Assembly (NCBI GenBank): GCA_951406725.2
Contig: OX597829.1
Coordinates: forward strand, 19,344,001 to 19,408,000
DNA from: Octopus vulgaris
Lineage: Eukaryota
DNA: 64,000 nucleotides
Direction: 5' to 3'
The notes beneath the pieces are model-generated. The model searched no databases. It worked only from the letters and a program-made list of their open reading frames with translations, and had not been told where the DNA came from. Shown in pieces: positions 3,371 through 58,088 of the stretch. The position numbers were made by a program, and so were the translations under genes. The stretch's first letter is position 1, and each line of letters opens with the position of its first letter.

Positions 3371-4739
3371 TTGATTGGTGGTTATGGGTGACATGTCACA
3401 ATACCAGATATCAATTATGTAACAATATCATGCTATATCATTTTACTGAAGTGGTGATTGTATAAGTGTATGAAGGTTGTTGTTATATTAACAGAAGGTG
3501 ATTGTGTTGGATGTGTTGAGTTTGGTTGTCTCACATTATTGAATTAGTGATTACATTTTCTATGCATTTGGTGAGTTGCTGCAGGTGTAGAGGATGTTTT
3601 ACGGTATTAGTTGTTGATTATGTAGAGGAGTATCATATTGTTGTATACTTTTATTGGATAGTAAATATGTGTTGCATGAATTGTGTTACTTGTTCCATAG
3701 AAAGGGAAATATCATGTACAGAATTTAGGCTGCATGCTGCATGACTATTTTTTTTAGACTATATGGGTTTTTGTTAGGTTTTAATTATAGGTTTTGTTGT
3801 TCATGTTGTTTTTTAGCATAACTAGTGCTCCAGTTACACTGTGTAACACGATTTTTATCCTTAGGTAGCAACTGTTACATCCTATATGACAGTATGAAAA
3901 ATAGTCAATATTTCCTTCAGACTTTGTTTTTGTCACATTTATTCAAAACCCCAAAGAATCCCTCTTAACACGTAGTTGTGATGTCTCCCCCCCCCCCACT
4001 ACTCCTGCTCATCATCAAAAATGCACATATTGTCAACCACCAAAGGATAAAGTGGTTAATGTCAAGCAACTTACAAACAAATCTGTGATATTAAGCAGAA
4101 TATTTGCTATAACGATATTTCTGCTTCAGCAACTCAGTTGAATCTGTTTGAAATGTAATGGAAAATAAGTTAATTTGAAAACATTGATGTCTAGGTGGTA
4201 AAAGCAAAGTTTGAAGGGAATAGTAGTCATTTCCTTTGATTTCTACATAGAAGTAAATAAGAAATATTTCTCAATGACCAAAGACACGAAAATAATTAAA
4301 ATTTTCTGTTTTTTTACTTACATGAAATGCATTTCCTTTTCAAGGATTTTGTAGTTTTAGTAATTTCTTAACTTCTTTCTGGCCAATGTTTCATCGAAAA
4401 GAAACAAAGATTTGTTTCAGAGAGCAGACTTTCATCCCTTTCTTTGATAACAATATCTGGTAGGTTGATTGTCTTGACAGTCATGCCTCAAATTAACACA
4501 GCCAAATCATTGTCACATCACTTTATCATGTAAACTGGCCAAATAAGGCCCAAATATTCTACCTGCTTTATGTCCTTGCTGGCCTGATTGGACCTCTTGC
4601 ACCTACCCTACAATGTTATTTTAAAAGTAAACAATCACATCTCTTGTATCTTGAAGCTGCAACAGGATAATGCATGATTACTTAAAAACAATGTGGATAA
4701 ATAAGCTTTACATTAGACAGAATAATTTGAATGTGAAAT

Positions 4740-5060
4740 GGTTACATACACACACACACACACACATGCACATGCACACACATACACACACACACATGCA
4801 CACACATACACACACACACACACATTCATACACACTCACAGATATACACATACATTCATACACACTCACAGATATACACACACATACATGCATATATACA
4901 CACATATACATACATATATACTTACCTACCTACCTACATACCTACATACATACATACATACATACATACATACATACATACATACATACATACATACATA
5001 CATACATACATACATACATACATACATACATACATGGATGCATGCATCCATGCATACATA
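4740..5060. repeat. (CA)n and (TACA)n microsatellite
   Basis: Visible repeat. Confidence 0.95.
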
Positions 5061-5061
5061 C

Positions 5062-5595
5062 AATTTACAATGCAATCCACCAAAAAGACTGCCTGAAATA
5101 AACTTAGAAAACCCCTCTGTTATGGAATACATTCATAAACACAAACTCAAGGAATACTGGTGGAATATTCCCATTAAAATTTCTGTCAAATGTAAACATA
5201 ACAGGCCACATATTGTTGTTTGGGGCAGAGGAGCAAAGGTATGCACCATCATAGAGGTTAGCTGCCCTGCAGATATAAATATCTCTTTGAAAATCAAAGA
5301 AAAAAAGAGGATATCTATGGACAACTACTTTGAAACCCCCAGCTTCTATATCCATACCATGAATTCATATTCATACCAATAATAATTGGAGCATTAGGTT
5401 TTGTTAGTAAATGCTTAAAGGAGAATCTGGATGGATTGGGATTTTCAGAAAGAGAGATCGACCGGCTAATTTGTACATTACAAGTGCAATCTTGTCTGTG
5501 TTAATTACATCCCATAGATGGAGCCTTGTATCTTTGTTGGAAACCGGCTCCCTCCTCAGTTAAAGATTTATAATAATTAAAAAATAGAAGAGACA
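5062..5595 (+). mobile_element. 3' fragment of a restriction-like-endonuclease non-LTR retrotransposon (R4/Dong-like), degenerate
   Basis: Translation WWNIPIKISVKCKHNRPHIVVWGRGAKVCTIIEVSCP...FIPIIIGALG resembles the HNRPD...IEV-C-P restriction-like endonuclease motif. Flanked by (CATA)n on both sides. Confidence 0.75.
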
Positions 5596-12075: not shown

Positions 12076-12229
12076 ACAGTGAAAGATCAGCTGAATTTGA
12101 ACTCAAAACATAAAGGCCAGAAGGAATACTGCCAAGCAATTTGTCTCCCAGTTGTGCCAGTTAGCTGTCTTCAGTAAATGTCATAATAACAAATAATGAC
12201 CAGAGATATGATAGCAGAGAATTTCTGTC

Positions 12230-12640
12230 AGCTAACACACAAGGTTTTAATAGAACTGGGCACCACTGCATAGTGCCAAGGACTCCAAATTTGCCATCAA
12301 GATGTAGGACAAGATACTGCAACAGCCTGGGCTTCAGAGGCCCACAGCTCTTCAATAACCTCCTGAAGGACCTGAAAGACCTGCATGGGATGAATGTAGG
12401 TGTCTTCAAAATAAAGCTGAACCTCTTCCTGTCAGGTGTCCCAGATGAACCAACTTCGCGGCAGGAGGTGCAGATGAGGGCAGCTGCATCAAACTCTCTC
12501 ATGCACCAAATGTCAATAGCTAAAAAGCATTCGTGAAGTAAAATTATGTAGCAACACCAAATGGCGGTGCCCCAGCATGGCCACAGCTCGTGAGCTGAAA
12601 CCAGATGAAATAAAATAAATAAATAAATAAATAAATAAAA
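12230..12640 (+). mobile_element. CR1/L2-group LINE 3' end with (TAAA)n tail
   Basis: ORF end NSLGFRGPQLFNNLLKDL...VFKIKLNLFLSGVPDEP matches the (W/F)N-x-LP...FK-x2-L C-terminal pattern of CR1/L2/Jockey-group ORF2. Confidence 0.75.
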
Positions 12641-23042: not shown

Positions 23043-24175
23043 CTTAGGAATGTCCCATGCAGTGAACATCTAGATATTTGTGCAAATGGCAAATTTTAAA
23101 TATTCCCATTTTACAAAATAAAAGATGAAAATATTACAAAATAAATGATGAAGACTATGAAAGGCAAAAGAAGAATACTTTATAAGAATTCTAAATCCAA
23201 AATTAAACCGAAAATAGCCAACACCACAAATAAACAATGGTAAAAGAATATTTATAACCAAAACCATAAGTCTGAAAATAAACCTGTAATAATACTACCA
23301 CTACCACAAAAATAAATTCCTCTTTAAGAGCACATGTGTTTGAAAAGGTTTAACGAAAGCGCTCACATACTACAAAAAAACTTCTTCCCAAAAAAGGTTA
23401 GTAAACATACTCATAACAGATTTCATAACATTTTACACTTCAAAAACTATTAAGTAATCCTCATAGACTTTCAAATACACACACACATATATATATACAT
23501 AAATATGTATAGTAAGAGAAGGGATATCCAGGCAGATATGGAATAAAAAGCCAAGGCTGGTTCCTTCTGGGTTTTTTGGTAATTGTCCTTTAGGTCCCAT
23601 CTGATATTCATTTTATTTCTTGGCTACTTAAGAGTGAAAAGTACAATATTGATAACAAAGAATTTGAACATTCAAACTTTATGTCTATTTCCAGTTAGTT
23701 TATTCATAATAATTGTTCAACTAACCAGAAATAAAAATGAAATTTGAAAGTTCAAATTCTTCATTCTCCTTTATATATATATGTGTTACATCTGTTTACA
23801 GGAAACATTTTGATTATGCCAATAAAGCTCTTATTCCATTATGCCAGCCACATCTTATGACACTGACCGGTGAACCACTTTCTGGGGATAAATATAGTGA
23901 TAATAACAATAATCCTTGGATGGGATTTATAAACATTTCATTTAATCAACCTCCTTGCTGGTCAAAAGGGATTAAAAAAACAGTTAAACATTCATTAATG
24001 TTGTATCACCTGAAGAAATGAATCCATGAAGATAATCTGTCTGATGTCCAAAGATACTATGGACTACACTGTAATCATCCCAGGAATATGGACTGTAAGC
24101 TTAAGAGACATGTGATTCGCAAAACGTGCATAGCGATGCATTAAATGTTTATAATTCCATCCAAGAATGATTATC
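23043..24175 (+). mobile_element. Penelope-like element 3' end: endonuclease C-terminus, UTR and degenerate hammerhead
   Basis: LRNVPCSEHLDICANGKF*IFPFYK...KAKEEYFIRILNPKLN matches the PLE GIY-YIG C-terminus. Hammerhead-like relic at 24003-24139. Continuity of the intervening ~800 bp is inferred. Confidence 0.65.
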
Positions 24176-28420: not shown

Positions 28421-28510
28421 TCCAATACATTTTATTTTTAGGCTGTAAACGTCTTTATTTTTACATAAAACCTCAATGCTGGTATGGGTTGAACAGTTTG
28501 ACCTGAGTTG

Positions 28511-29695
28511 GCAAGCTGGAGAGCTGCACCAGGTTCCAGTCTGATTTGGTTTGGTTTCTACAGCTGGATGCCCTTCCTAGTGCCAACCACTTTATAGTGT
28601 GTGCTGAGTGCTAGAGGTGGCAAGCTGGAGAGCTGCACCAGGTTCCAGTCTGATTTGGTTTGGTTTCTACAGCTGGATGCCCTTCCTAGTGCCACCCACT
28701 TTATAGTGTGTGCTGAGTGCTAGAGGTGGCAAGCTGGAGAGCTGCACCAGGTTCCAATCTGATTTGGCTTGGTTTCTACAGCTGGATGCCCTTCCTAGTG
28801 CCAACCACTTTATAGTGTCTGCTGAGTGCTAGAGGTGGGAAGCTGGAGAGCTGCACCAGGTTCCAATCTGATTTGGCTTGGTTTCTACAGCTGGATGCCC
28901 TTCCTAGTGCCAACCACTTTATAGTGTGTAGTGAGTGCTAGAGGTGGCAAGCTGGAGAGCTGCACCAGGTTCCAGTCTGATTTGGTTTGGTTTCTACAGC
29001 TGGATGCCCTTCCTAGTGCCAACCACTTTATAGTGTGTGCTGAGTGCTAGAGGTGGCAAGCTGGAGAGCTGCACCAGGTTCCAGTCTGATTTGGTTTGGT
29101 TTCTACAGCTGGATGCCCTTCCTAGTGCCACCCACTTTATAGTGTGTGCTGAGTGCTAGAGGTGGCAAGCTGGAGAGCTGCACCAGGTTCCAATCTGATT
29201 TGGCTTGGTTTCTACAGCTGGATGCCCTTCCTAGTGCCAACCACTTTATAGTGTCTGCTGAGTGCTAGAGGTGGGAAGCTGGAGAGCTGCACCAGGTTCC
29301 AATCTGATTTGGCTTGGTTTCTACAGCTGGATGCCCTTCCTAGTGCCAACCACTTTATAGTGTGTAGTGAGTGCTAGAGGTGGCAAGCTGGAGAGCTGCA
29401 CCAGGTTCCAGTCTGATTTGGTTTGGTTTCTACAGCTGGATGCCCTTCCTAGTGCCAACCACTTTATAGTGTGTGCTGAGTGCTAGAGGTGGCAAGCTGG
29501 AGAGCTGCACCAGGTTCCAGTCTGATTTGGCTTGGCTTCTACAGCTGGATGCCCTTCTTAGTGCCAACCACTTTATAGTGTGTGCAGTGCTAGAGCTGGC
29601 AAGCTGGAGAGCTGCACCAGGTTCCAGTCTGATTTGGCTTGGTTTCTACAGCTGAATGCCCTTCCTAGTCCAACCACTTTACAGTGTGATGAGTG
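28511..29695. repeat. Tandem array of 11 x 109-bp units derived from a retroposon 3' segment, inside the last UBL3 intron
   Basis: Unit starts at 28511, 28620, 28729, 28838, 28947, 29056, 29165, 29274, 29383, 29492 and 29599. Confidence 0.95.
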
Positions 29696-29923: not shown

Positions 29924-29998
29924 CCTGGTTATTTGGTTCAGGTAAGTTTTCTCTTGCTACTAGATGCATCACAGTCTTCCCAAGTGGGAGCTGAAGAG
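29924..29998 (-). CDS. UBL3: UBL3 coding exon: (A)LQLPLGKTVMHLVARENLPEPNNQ
   Basis: Matches UBL3 ALKLPFGKTTVMHLVARETLPEPNSQ. Acceptor ttctttgcag, donor GTATGT, 75 nt, phase 1-1. Confidence 0.96.
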
Positions 29999-31599: not shown

Positions 31600-33430
31600 G
31601 CTAGCTCATTATTCTGAAAGGAATTGGTACAGAGCTAGTGGTGTAGTCCACTCTAAGAATGCCACAAAGAGCTGAATCTCCTAAAAAGTAGTCAATAATC
31701 GGGTGTCTATGCATATTTGAAAGGCTCCACCATTCAATCTCTCTTTGATCCAGGTTTATTCACCTACAACAAAACAGATGAAGAGATGGGGTCTTACTAT
31801 TGCTTTGTGCAAGACACCCACTATGGCTGCCCAAGCTGAGATATTGGCCCAAGCCGAGATATTGTGATAGTTGCAGCAGGGTTTAGTATCATTGTAGGAG
31901 AGAAGTCCTTAGTGGAGGGCATTAGAGTCAGGGAACTCGGAACCACACAAGGAAATACCTTGTCTGCTGCCACAACAACCTTTTTATCACAAGTACTGCA
32001 TAGAAGAGAAAACAGAATTAGAAAGATAAAGCTTAATCTTGATGTCTTAAGACAACCTGCAAAGCCACGGAATTTAACAAATTTCATAATTGTTTGGAAT
32101 GGAACATTGCTATAATGAGTTGTTAGAGACTATTGGACAGGAGGCACTCATTCAGGACTACACAATTTTCTTTAGAAGAGACTAAGCAGAGATATGAAGC
32201 ATCTCACAGAGCAAAACAATACCAATCTAGGCAGGAAAGGGCCTAATGGTTGGAAAGGCAGTGTAGAGAAAAAGAAGATTTTCACCATAACACAACAATA
32301 GGCAATTCTGTCATAAAAAAAAAAATTTAGAAAAAAATTTCCAACCAAACAATGCAACATTAAGTATGAAGAAAGCTAACAGACTTGAAGGATATTCTGA
32401 GAAGGTAGGAAGAATACTATCAGGATGTCCAGGACTTTGCCGATTCAAACTGTAACTGTAGCAGTAACATACTGCACTGCATGCTAGAAATTCTGAAAGA
32501 GGAAGTGAGGGAAGTAATTTGGCACCAACCCAATAACAAAGCAGTAAGTGGTAATGACCTTCCTGCAGAGTTACAGACAACAAACAACATGATGACAAAA
32601 GTTCTCACCAAGCCGTGTAATAATATCTGTGAGATAGGCAAACAGCCAGCAGACTGCAGGCAAGCAGACTTAGTTGAACTACCTAAGGCTGAAGAAGACA
32701 CAGTTGAATGCTCGGAACACTGCACCATAGCAGCACAAGCAAGATGTTGCTGGAAACTCTGCCAAACTGGATGGAATGGATTACTGAAGAACAGTCCACA
32801 GAAGTGTGAATGGAGTTTCATAAAGGGGTGAGAATGGGGGACCAGGTCTTAATATCAAGAATCTCATCCAAAAAGCCAGCAAACATAATGTTCCACTGTA
32901 CACGGCATTCATAAACTATATAAACAAAAGCTTATAACTGAGTCTAGCATTCCACGACAAGAGAGTCATTACACATGATGAAGGTCTAGCAGTTAACTTA
33001 TGGCACAGACTGTACAGTGGTCAGCAAGGAGTTATTGGAATAGAATGCAAACTTAGCATCAGCAAGGGAGATCAACAAGGGTGTCATGTTTCACATGTCT
33101 GCTTTGTCCACTATTACTAAGAGATAATGAAGAGGGGTTAGCAGATGATCTTAGTTGAATCCACAAGCAGCAGCTGTATAACTTTTGTTGTTATGCTAAT
33201 GACACTGCAGATTGCTACTTTTCCAAATGAACTCCAGGAACTGATCGACAAAGTTAGCACGTTTCAACTTGAGATCAGCACCAAAGAAGACCATGGCTGA
33301 TAGCAGAAATCCAGAGCAGTTCATGACATGATGCCAGTCAGCAAGTCCAAACTACTGGGTTCCATCATTGACCAAACAGTAGACTACAGACGGGAAATTA
33401 GGTAAGACTCGATCTTACCTTGACTTCCTG
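31600..33430 (+). mobile_element. Decayed RTE-clade LINE (AP endonuclease and RT remnants)
   Basis: KAPPFNLSLIQVYSPT (AP endonuclease); EILKEEVREVI...NNKAVSGNDLPAEL...ELPK...ECSEHCTIA (RT N-terminus); many stops and frameshifts. Confidence 0.8.
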
Positions 33431-38309: not shown

Positions 38310-38570
38310 AAAATTTACAATAGCTGTTCTGGTAGAATTTTATTTAATATATTCTTAAAAGATTACATCATAATATACAACTCACCATCATCAGGTAAAA
38401 TTAGGTAAAGTGGATATAGCCATCATTTGTCGGACTGAACTAGGCCAACAAATCATAGCTAAATCCAAGTTGACTGTTTAAAATTTTATCTGATGATGGT
38501 GGAATGTCTATTATGATGTAATTTTTTGCAACTATATTACATAAATTCTACTGAAATGCCAGTATTTGTA
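38310..38570. repeat. Long imperfect fold-back containing two inverted hammerhead-like relics
   Basis: CACCATCATCAGGTAAAATT (38383-38402) against AATTTTATCTGATGATGGTG (38482-38501); pairing continues inward and outward. Confidence 0.7.
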
Positions 38571-45336: not shown

Positions 45337-45382
45337 AAATCTGTTACTCTGAGTTTCTCGTTGCCATTCATCAGACAGTTTT
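45337..45382 (-). ncRNA. Minimal type I hammerhead ribozyme-like motif (PLE type)
   Basis: Minus strand AAAACUGU-CUGAUGA-aUG-GCAA-CGa-GAAAC-UCAGA-GUA-ACAGAUUUU: intact core, stem I CUGU/ACAG, near-palindromic stem III ACUC-A-GAGU. Confidence 0.6.
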
Positions 45383-48331: not shown

Positions 48332-50178
48332 ACAATAATCTGGAAAAAAAAATCCTCAATATTGTTTTTGAAAACAACAATAAAAAAAAAATCATGCCTT
48401 GTAATTTTTTTCCATTTTCAGCACTGAACCAACTATAACTTGAATTTACTTATTTTCGATCTTTGAACGTAGGGCCTCATGGAGGAAATGGCTACTGACA
48501 GACCTTTTGGCAATATGCCATACTAGAAAAGACCCGTCAAGCCAAGTGAAATCATAGTGCCAGTGGCACGTAGAACGCAGCTTTTGAGTGTTAGGCCTCA
48601 TGGCAGCAAGGTGACCAATGCCAGTGGCATGTGAAAAGTACCTTTTGAATGTTGGGCCTCACGGAGGCAGATCAAGACCCTTGGCATTATGCTGTGCTTG
48701 AGAAGAAGACCCATAAAGCCAAGTGAAATAGTAGTCGTGGTAGATACTGGTGTCATACAAATAGTACCTGTGCTAGTGGCACCTAAAAGCACCCATTACA
48801 CTCTTGGAGTGGTTGGCATTAGGAAGAGCATCCAGCCATAGAACACCATGCCAAATCTGACAGGAGTCCGGTGCATCCTTCTAGCTTGCCAGCCCTGGTC
48901 AAACAATCCAACCCATGCCAGCATGGACCATGGACATTAAATAATGATGATGAGTTTGCTCTTCAAAATGGTCCTTAATTTTTTACACTCATCTATCATT
49001 TATGTAAGTGTTTATATGCAATTGTGTGTGTGTGTGTTACTGTATCTATAAAATTTGCATACTAATGATTAGTTCTAATGATTTTGGCAAGTTTCACTGT
49101 GTTTCTTCATACTTTGATGCATGAATTATCCCATGTGGACAGTTGTTTTGTTCTTTTATTCTTTTACATGTGACAGTCATTTGACTGCAGCCATGCTAGA
49201 GAACCACCTTAAAGGGTTTTAGTCAAAGAAATCGACCCCAGGACTTATTCTTTGTAAGCCTAGTACTCATTCTATTGGATCTCTTTTGCCAAAGAGCTAG
49301 GTTACAGGGAAGTCAACACACCAACATCAGTTGTCAAGCGATGGTGGGGGACAAACACAAACATGCGTGCGCGCACACACACACACACACATATATATAC
49401 AACAGGCTTCTTTCAATTTTTGTTGCAAGGCTTTGATCAGCCGAGGCTATAGCGGAAGACACTTGCTCAAGGTGCCACAGTGTATATATGTGTGCGTGCG
49501 TGTGTATAATTTAATAAACAGGATATAAATGAAAGCTACTATTTTTTTTACGTTTCTGATTACAGAATAGTCAATTGAGCTTGTATAGCATGCCATGTAC
49601 TATTAAGCATTCATTCAATAAACACATATATACATATTTGTACATATACACACATACACTTGTATATGTATACTTGACCCCACATTTCTTCGCCATGACA
49701 TCACCTGACCAGTTGTAACATTTGTGTACTAATCATTGTCACCATCATGCTTGCAGGAGTGAGACAATTTGTTGAGACTATTTCTCTTCTTTTCTTCAAC
49801 TCTCCCTCGTTTGCAGCAAGGTGTTGTTATCCCATGAATGACCAGAAACAAGGAACTTTGCTTGCATGGAAGTAACACTCTTTATAACTATCCCATGCAG
49901 TGAAGACAAGGAGGCACAAACACACACATTATATATATATATTATATATATATATATATATTACAAGGAAAACACACACACACAAAGATAAGGTAAAAAA
50001 CAAAAAAAGAAACAATGTGTATTAGGTTGACACTCAAGAAAACTGGAAGAAATCTAATGTTTCAAGCTCATGTTCTTCTACAGAGGGGAGGGATGAGGAA
50101 AGAGAAAACATAAAAAAAAAAGAACAAGCATGTTTCAATTAGACAGTCATGCATGCTATATGTATGTATAATATATAT

Positions 50179-50441
50179 AAAGCAAATAAGCAACAAGGAT
50201 GTCCAGATATCAGTGCATTACGGCTGTTTCAAGTGGCTCCATTTAATCAATCAAGGCAAACATTACATCAATTTGAAATAAACCACTCTCCTCCATTCTC
50301 ATATAGATTTCCAACCTACAGGATACTCTATTAAAATTTTTTAACAAATTGATGTAATGTTTGCATTGATCAATTAAATGGAACTACTTGAAACGGCCCT
50401 AATGCACTAATACCCGGACATCCTTGTTACTTATTTGCTTT
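50179..50441. repeat. Older fold-back element related to the 50657 family
   Basis: Arms 50179-50275 and 50345-50441 are inverted and share AAGCAACAAGGAT.TCCAGA and GCAAACATTACATCAATTT with 50701-50790. Confidence 0.8.
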
Positions 50442-50522
50442 TTATTCAACCAGCTACAAGCTGTGAGGACTGACTTGGTGCCTCAACTTAAGTACCTAAT
50501 TCAACTGAATCTTAATCATTTC

Positions 50523-50594
<72 letters not shown>

Positions 50595-50656
50595 AAGTTC
50601 ATTAAAATTTAGATTCAGATGAATATGGTACTAATTTTAAAGGCACCAGAATTTAG

Positions 50657-51318
50657 TATGGTATTATCCATATTATTCAAAATGGGGTGATTATAATCAA
50701 AACAAGCAACAAGGATATCCAGAGGTAATGCAGTACAATCGTTTCATGCAACTTCATTTAATTGAACAATGCAAACATTACATCAATTTAAAATGCAGAG
50801 CAAACTTCAGCTGCATAAAAATATAACTATACAAATGAATCCTTCGAATTTAACTAAATTCTATATTTTTATGCAGCTGAAGATTGCTCTACATTTTAAA
50901 TTGATGTAATATTTGCATTGTTCAATTAAATGGAGTTGCATGAAACAATCGTACCGCATTACCTCTGGATATCCTTGTATATGGTATTATCCATATTATT
51001 CAAAATGGGGTGATTATAATCAAAACAAGCAACAAGGATATCCAGAGGTAATGCGGTACGATTGTTTCATGCAACTCCATTTAATTGAACAATGCAAATA
51101 TTACATCAATTTAAAATGTAGAGCAATCTTCAGCTGCATAAAAATATAGAATTTAGTTAAATTCGAAGGATTCATTTGTATAGTTATATTTTTATGCAGC
51201 TGAAGTTTGCTCTGCATTTTAAATTGATGTAATGTTTGCATTGTTCAATTAAATGAAGTTGCATGAAACGATTGTACTGCATTACCTCTGGATATCCTTG
51301 TTGCTTATTTTGATTATA
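50657..51318. mobile_element. Tandem pair (period 323 bp) of palindromic elements in flip/flop configuration, with four hammerhead-like motifs
   Basis: Direct repeat starts at 50657 and 50980. 50692-50978 is the near-perfect reverse complement of 51032-51318. Motifs at 50871-50959(+), 51194-51282(+), 50728-50816(-) and 51051-51139(-). Confidence 0.8.
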
Positions 51319-52746
51319 TATATATATGCGTGTGTGTGTGAGTGAGAAACTGCAGTAAAGTTTGTCCTAACAGAACATCCATGTTTAAGTGGGGATAAAT
51401 ATTACCTCTTGGTAGTAATACTGCCTCTGTCACTAATATATACATGATAAGCTTCTTTCAGTTTCCATCAAACAAATTCTAGTGTGAACTGAATCCAAAG
51501 CAATACATGGCTATATTGTTAAGAAGCAAACTTCTTAACAACATAACCACAGCTGTGCCTGTAGTCATGCCTACACCTATCACACAAGTGAAAAATATTC
51601 AGCAGCTAGGGGTTCAAACATGAAAATAAGGGTTCACCATAGAAAGATGTCTCAAGGAGCACCCAAAATAGTAAAAACAAAAGCAGACTCTCATACACAC
51701 AATGGCTTTTGCACAGTTTCGATTATGATGTTCCATATGCGACAGATCTGTCAATCTGAGGCAGTGAGAGAAAACATGCCAATGGTGTTGCAAAGTGGGA
51801 TTGAACCCAGAACTACCTGTTTGCCTTTGCAAAGCAAACGTCTTAGCCACACAGGCAATTAGTGAATTTACTTAAGTAATATTATATTACAAGTAACTTA
51901 TGTCAAGCCAAGAACAAAAGACAACAGTGTTTGAAGTCGGATTAAGGATCAAACTAAATACAATATTGTCTCTAATTTATGAACAAAGCCAACAAATTTG
52001 ATGTGGAGTGGGAGTGGGATTAGCTGAAAACACTGACACCCCCACCCCAGCCTCTGAGGGAATAAAAAGCTAAGCTGGGGCGCAAGTGCTGTAACAGCAC
52101 ATTGCTGCATCCACCATGTTGGTAATTCCCAAACCCTAACAGGTGACATCTTTGCACCACTCAGATGACAGCCCTCCAACCCATGGGTCTCTCTGGTGAA
52201 GGTTTTACAAGGTAGGAGTGCAAACCTCTTTTAGTTGCCTTTAACAACAACGTTGGGACTATCCTTTGACATACCAATTCCCACACAGCACTAGAGCAAT
52301 GTGAAATGAAGTACTTTGCTCAAGGACTAACTTACTGCCCAGTTCAGGAATCAAACCCACAACCTTGCAAATCATGAGTGCAACATCCTAACCACAAAGC
52401 CATGTGTCTTCATGTACAATCATAAAGAACCAAAAAAAAAAAAATACTACAAGGCATGTTCTCTGATACTGTAGCACTTATTTCCTAAAATGATAACTTC
52501 TCAAAAATAAAATAAAAGCATTTAATTTTGTTAAAGTCAGAAACTATAATTCTTAATTTGAAGAAATTCCATAAAGTGATCTAATTACATTGTTAACAAA
52601 CAAGGAAATTTTTTAACTGGGGAATGGGGGAGATACAAATGCTGATTTTTACCAAGATAACTTGAAAAATCAATACCACTAAATTTTATGGCATTTCTAA
52701 AGCCTTTTCTATAATCTCAAAAATTATTATATAATTACTCCTCAAT

Positions 52747-57979: not shown

Positions 57980-58088
57980 CTTCTGGCCAATTACTATAAA
58001 CATATTCTGTAATGTCAGCAGCTGAATCATTAGGAGAAAATATAAACTCTTTTGTTTTCCCACTGACTAATATTAGTCGTATTGTGAT
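57980..58088 (-). CDS. UBL3: UBL3 coding exon (equivalent to vertebrate exon 2): ITIRLILVSGKTKEFIFSPNDSAADITEYVYSNWPE
   Basis: Translation closely matches the UBL3/MUB N-terminus as I recall it (human INLRLILVSGKTKEFLFSPNDSASDI). Acceptor ttttgtcttcag, donor GTAAGT, 109 nt, phase 0 to phase 1. Confidence 0.96.

Follow-up and report, generated by a model that had tools for sequence, protein, structure and literature searches.

A flip/flop tandem hairpin in Octopus vulgaris: probable Penelope-like element debris with a proposed template-switch duplication

The 64-kb stretch of Octopus vulgaris DNA analyzed here (the window, by whose positions all features are numbered) carries, at 50657-51318, two tandem hairpins with oppositely oriented loops. 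We consider it probable, though well short of certain, that the locus is an old head-to-head fragment of the end of a Penelope-like element (PLE), 323 bp of which were recopied once, and recently, by a two-step DNA template switch. The structure is real and, on this reading, combines retroelement debris of a known kind with a copying error of a known kind.

Anatomy of the locus and of the copied segment

Comparison of the direct repeats confirmed the two tandem units described in the earlier note, at 50657-50978 and 50980-51301, with a period of 323 bp. The hairpin reported for the first unit lies at 50709-50978 and has 117-nt arms and a 36-nt loop; that of the second lies at 51015-51318, with 134-nt arms and a loop of the same length, and in both the arms are 94% complementary. 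Also borne out were the inversion of the second loop (51149-51184), which is the exact reverse complement of the first (50826-50861), the swapping of arm substitutions between units (14 of 14) and the near-perfect inverted repeat formed by 50692-50978 and 51032-51318, which spans 287 nt with a single mismatch at 50703. The description of the leader stood only in part: its orientation is direct, as claimed, but the unique part measures 35 bp rather than ~50 bp, and these inner 35 nt are element sequence. They occupy 50657-50691, with a second copy at 50980-51014 on the minus strand (direct-repeat comparison, string identity), and belong to a one-sided 3′ tail of the long arm, ~85 nt in length (50607-50691, minus strand; outer boundary approximate, 50596-50607). 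This sequence and its outward flank are those of a repeat family, and loose ends of family contigs run into the tail.

The likely original of the two hairpins is the 304-bp head-to-head structure at 51015-51318, made up of arm A (51015-51148), the loop (51149-51184) and arm B (51185-51318). Between its arms, 8 of 134 positions have diverged, but no difference separates the two units, so an old hairpin was recopied very recently, or was recopied in assembly. The first loop (50826-50861, plus strand) represents element sequence 5′ of the hammerhead, namely, the extra length of the longer of the two head-to-head copies, and is multi-copy in contigs.

The new segment consists of two pieces, both exact by string identity. 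The first, at 50657-50731 on the plus strand, is a direct copy of 50980-51054, and the second, at 50704-50978 on the minus strand, is an inverted copy of 51032-51306 that includes arm B, the loop and arm A shortened by 17 nt. The change from direct to inverted copy falls within junction J1 (50704-50731), a 28-nt stretch identical in both arms. Position 50703 matches its direct partner and positions from 50732 onward match the inverted partner, so the apparent mismatch at 50703 is the mark of a crossover and no true mutation. At junction J2 (50977-50981), arm A lacks its last 17 nt and runs straight into the middle part of the tail, with a 2-nt GT microhomology and a repeated AT. On the minus strand, antisense B, the loop and A come first, followed by 35 nt of tail, then by antisense A and the antisense loop, and finally by B, an A-type end and the full tail.

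These exact junctions suggest the following path: a polymerase would have moved leftward, in window coordinates, through the hairpin and 35 nt of the tail, folded back by ~53 nt at the GT microhomology, used the opposite strand as template for arm A, the loop and arm B, and rejoined the original strand within the 28 nt that both arm ends have in common. One such two-switch event explains at once why the repeat is direct, why the loop is flipped and why the arm substitutions are swapped. Template switching was one of two mechanisms offered in the earlier note, and it fits the junctions. At long inverted repeats, a pair of template switches is an accepted route to spacer inversion (PMC8755829, which cites the four-point template-switch model of Loytynoja and Goldman), and the rearrangements described there share with this locus an exact inverted copy, one switch within arm homology and a flipped loop. 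They differ in that the switches reported in that work only invert, whereas here the polymerase would have returned at a point behind the one it had left, for a gain of 323 bp. Both junctions lie away from the natural ends of the element, which argues against re-mobilization by the element's own enzyme.

The same final sequence could also arise from two host events, a microhomology-mediated direct tandem duplication followed by inversion of one hairpin through recombination between the outer parts of the arms, where stretches of 28 and 23 nt are identical. We regard this as quite improbable, as two rare events would be needed before any substitution had occurred across 322 bp.

Unlikely, but by no means negligible, is the possibility that only the single hairpin is real and that the flipped copy is a chimera that arose in assembly or in the library, from a fold-back read or a consensus error at the palindrome. 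A fold-back read of the simple kind should give a mirrored flank and no return to the original strand, whereas two precise switches are required here, and the assembly contains no N in the window. Zero divergence between the copied pieces speaks for a chimera, as do reports that tandem and inverted PLE structures trouble assemblies (10.1101/2021.04.23.441226). The contig comparison described below covered 50826-51031, a span that takes in J2, with J1 outside it; none of the 32 pieces listed (10,685 further) bridged J2, a result consistent with a chimera, although short contigs over J2 could be missed among the pieces listed, where the shortest span for run X1 was ~97 nt.

Hammerhead-like motifs and the family that carries them

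The locus contains four hammerhead-like layouts, two per strand, in all of which 58 nt separate the core halves; both variants named in the earlier note are present. Those of the arm B type lie at 50728-50816 (minus strand), with a change of A9 to U, a GAUU loop and an intact stem I, and, by the layout scan, at 51194-51282 (plus strand). Those of the arm A type lie at 50871-50959 (plus strand), with an intact core, an A-C mismatch in stem I adjoining the cleavage site and an AAUC loop, and, again by the layout scan, at 51051-51139 (minus strand). Each motif thus has one defect in the core or stem I and one palindrome mismatch. A strict descriptor (CUGANGA, GAAA, a palindromic stem III with at most one mismatch and at least 5 of 6 stem I pairs) matched twice in the window, and 100 simulated 64-kb sequences from a second-order Markov model contained no match. 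Comparison with Rfam at E≤10 returned 25 matches, none of them a hammerhead; the miRNA matches were rejected, as they fall below gathering scores and merely reflect the long hairpin.

A single isolated arm folds no better than its shuffles (z of −0.55 to −1.07), and the predicted energy of the hairpin is −190 to −204 kcal/mol versus −9 to −15 kcal/mol for the hammerhead fold. Because the hairpin so far outweighs the hammerhead fold, no cleavage is predicted at the locus. The copies are head to head, so that a transcript of either strand contains the complementary arm ahead of the motif. The local hammerheads are predicted to be inactive, enclosed within a long duplex of the host pre-mRNA. Just 5′ of the hammerhead core, at 50851-50876 on the plus strand and at the equivalent positions of the other arms, a T-rich tract ends in GCAG and resembles a 3′ splice site, a matter of resemblance only. 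The intron of the Penelope element in Drosophila virilis ends at the 5′ end of helix I (PMC4209133).

Contigs of four public runs were aligned to 50826-51031 (206 bp) at 82% likeness, and 4168, 3625, 2451 and 383 of them matched. The first three counts come from DNA or unlabelled runs; the fourth is from run X14, which is only presumed to be RNA, and is not evidence of expression. Summed arm depth in the three larger runs was 10^5-10^6, reaching ~1-1.5 million, with single listed contigs there at 14-150; summed contig depth is not a copy number, and from these values we infer a family of roughly tens of thousands of arms. No description of the family was listed in the article literature searched.

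The majority letters of this family repair the damage seen at the locus. At 50947, G makes up 89-94% of summed depth and restores the ACGAUCGU palindrome (GAUC loop); at 50955, T (U) makes up 98-99.8% and leaves stem I fully paired. Within the CUGAAGA core, only N7 varies among the variants listed (3-15%). The family majority carries the type I hammerhead core, NUH and helices I-III at the level of sequence layout. The GAUC consensus that had been inferred in the earlier note is therefore right at the family level, where core, stem I and palindrome are all intact. The letters of arm B at A9, 50933 and the loop are absent from the variants listed at an 8% threshold in family contigs and so are private to the locus. 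Measured against the family majority, the arms gained private substitutions after insertion, namely, two transitions of CpG type in the palindrome of stem III, the A9-to-U change and the mismatch in stem I.

By analogy with characterized PLE ribozymes, the family hammerhead would work as a weak type I ribozyme assisted by dimerization or by protein. Cleavage by PLE hammerheads is reported to be low and dimer dependent (PMC4209133; PMC6765202), and the ribozyme of an anole element is described as protein assisted and dispensable in vitro (PMC11167929). With the metazoan PLE type I hammerheads of the first two sources, the family shares the CUGANGA/GAAA core, a 6-bp helix I, a 2-bp helix III and a palindromic loop suited to dimers, as well as the occurrence of pairs on opposite strands a few hundred base pairs apart; minimal hammerheads with a palindromic helix III are reported in such pairs at 100-700 bp (PMC4209133). 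Helix II sets it apart, with 58 nt here against a stem of 7-8 bp in the published metazoan examples, and with U-U at its base (G-U in a sister subfamily described below) against the usual G10.1-C11.1; a U-U base is reported for the axolotl HHR_Amex2 (PMC7229834). The 58-nt helix II is the sole unusual trait of otherwise ordinary debris.

Opposite-strand turn joints near the loop were heterogeneous: eight different ones occurred among those listed, each represented by one contig per run at a depth of 24.5-92. Three runs contain the joint from 50826 to 50868, which is no more than 6 nt from the turn at the locus itself and may represent the ancestral hairpin. Amplification of a hairpin as a unit should yield one dominant, deep joint, though assembly, or the choice of contigs listed, may hide short high-copy joints. 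A fixed turn recurring in two orientations did not appear among the joints listed, from which short high-copy contigs may escape.

These observations bear on the main proposal of the earlier note, that of a non-autonomous hairpin element copied by hairpin priming, with flip/flop isomers, a rod-like RNA and ribozymes in both polarities. The private damage is common to both units, the turn joints listed vary and stand at single-copy depth, the junctions fall inside the tail and an arm, away from element ends, and in any transcript an antisense arm precedes each motif. The proposal is thus unsupported, and we hold it to be very improbable, even though the opposite loop orientations, the same-strand motifs 323 nt apart and the core kept intact at the family level agree with it, and although self-priming has been proposed for inverted PLE junctions (PMC3846280) and PLEs tend to insert beside existing copies (PMC6765202). 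A related version, in which the hairpin and its tail are a protein-less passenger of a Penelope-type reverse transcriptase, recopied flip/flop by hairpin priming and with an active family hammerhead whose 58-nt helix II escapes standard searches, seems to us just as improbable.

Two further searches yielded rejected candidates. A metagenome scan with a 19-nt family motif returned 2 loci, and a viral scan with a gapped motif returned 33, none of the latter exceeding 4 of 6 stem I pairs; in neither scan did homology extend beyond the motif, and the matches were put down to chance.

A sister insertion and the Penelope-type origin

A third hairpin of the family, overlooked in the earlier note, lies ~250 bp away at 50175-50445 and is 77-79% identical to the main arms. 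Together with a one-sided tail from 50446 to ~50517, it makes up an insertion of a sister subfamily (50175-50517, plus strand). Its 108-nt arms are 86% complementary, its turn point differs and the 5′ half of its core has decayed, while it keeps the 58-nt spacing; helix II closes with 11 consecutive pairs, and the stem III loop is close to GGCC. Loose ends of GGCC type occur in contigs of two runs. The palindrome is kept across subfamilies, as GAUC in one and near-GGCC in the other. Between the two, helix II shows 2 double changes in 7 pairs, a level that is not significant in a comparison of two sequences, as 130 of 500 shuffles reached it. On the minus strand, at 50296-50310, the left arm of the sister lacks 5 nt relative to the main family in the interval from a shared CTATAT to A9, and a small deletion across stem I and the start of the core would explain the missing 5′ core half.

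The sister hairpin and 51015-51318 share one plan, in which a short arm ends in a TA run, a long arm leads into a one-sided tail and the 3′ ends face outward. The tails, ~70-85 nt long in the two hairpins, are homologous: 50607-50648 aligns with the sister tail at 33 of 42 positions, a score reached by none of 5000 shuffles and none of 1649 window segments. Both tails end at a (CT)n(TA)n microsatellite (50522-50594), and the short arms terminate in TA runs at 51315-51326 and ~50160-50178. All four outer ends of the two insertions thus adjoin TA or CT runs, and no target-site duplication was resolved beyond the TA repeats. The two insertions, 50175-50517 and 50607-51318, stand tail to tail across this one microsatellite, an arrangement that suggests repeated targeting of the same run.

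Judged by its architecture, the hairpin-bearing family is likely of Penelope type. Head-to-head inverted, 5′-truncated copies with variable truncation are seen in both hairpins and in the eight turn joints, and the family majority letters would place a type I hammerhead on the sense strand of the terminal repeat. These letters restore an intact type I layout, in support of the Penelope-type, hammerhead-bearing source suggested earlier for the arms. At the locus, a reverse transcriptase encoded by the element would have inserted a head-to-head pair of 5′-truncated 3′ ends at a TA microsatellite; one member of the pair is 36 nt longer on its 5′ side (the present loop) and bears the ~85-nt tail.

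Published accounts of PLEs describe an adjacent inverted, 5′-truncated copy, a tail of 30-40 bp on one end and a bias toward microsatellites (10.1101/2021.04.23.441226), as well as head-to-head inverted junctions (PMC3846280); in the anole element, the tail corresponds to the span between two internal starts of reverse transcription (PMC11167929). Insertion units of endonuclease-positive (EN+) PLEs, as portrayed in these three sources, resemble those found here in their unequal head-to-head 3′ ends, one-sided tail, AT or microsatellite targets and sense hammerhead. They differ in tail length (~85 nt here versus the published 30-40 bp), and here no start of an open reading frame (ORF) was recognized in the hammerhead or tail, nor was a target-site duplication or an autonomous partner found. 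Within the window, no reverse transcriptase or GIY-YIG ORF was linked to the family, and its arms and tails contain no conserved open frame.

The lack of an ORF would suit a family outside the PLEs, such as a hammerhead-bearing non-LTR retrozyme, a SINE-like repeat or a MITE- or Helitron-like foldback with a chance resemblance to a hammerhead, and the 323-bp period falls within the retrozyme size range (PMC7229834; 10.64898/2026.07.22.740005). Animal non-LTR retrozymes, as those two sources present them, also share with this locus a period of ~300 bp, low GC, a type I hammerhead and PLE ancestry. They are, however, head-to-tail repeats with a complete, functional ribozyme in each unit and circular RNAs, whereas the present locus is a foldback accident of two copies, head to head, with a one-sided tail and damaged motifs; head-to-tail units with complete hammerheads were not found here, only the two foldback units. 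The absence of the hammerhead layout from the 100 simulated windows speaks against chance resemblance. A MITE was rejected, since the variable turn and one-sided tail are unlike fixed terminal repeats. Taken together, a non-PLE family appears decidedly improbable, and we retain a Penelope-type origin as the likely one.

The host intron and what the locus implies

Exons of a minus-strand gene were located near 58046, 56636, 29969 and 27307 with sequence motifs expected of UBL3, and the locus falls in an intron of this gene. One exon matches Pfam PF13881 (Rad60-SLD_2) at E 7e-05. The earlier placement in a UBL3 intron therefore holds as regards an intron of a ubiquitin-like gene, which is presumably UBL3. 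Just downstream of the exon near 29969 lies a 109-bp tandem array (28505-29688; 10.9 copies, 96% matches). Imperfect hairpins at 38332-38551 and 23658-23761 are 74% and 77% self-complementary and are unrelated to the family at 50657-51318. A relaxed scan also picked up an isolated CUGAUGA...GAAAC on the minus strand at 45374, whose helix II spacer measures 10 nt and whose stem I forms 5 of 6 pairs; it may be due to chance. Open frames at 12165-12536, 32409-32831 and 4726-5382 had no Pfam match at E≤0.05; we take them to resemble LINE fragments.

As an intronic duplex of 287 bp and near-perfect pairing, the inverted repeat would be strongly suited to editing of double-stranded RNA. An excess of A>G changes was considered as a sign of A-to-I editing and rejected, as it is present in DNA runs and reflects the substitutions of arm A itself.

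On the reading preferred here, the locus is of modest importance: it offers a clean example of how a pre-existing imperfect hairpin becomes a flip/flop tandem through one copying slip, and it warns against reading such pairs as products of hairpin replication. At the level of the family, it points to a very abundant Penelope-type repeat whose hammerhead has a long helix II and escapes Rfam, so that hammerheads may be undercounted in such genomes.
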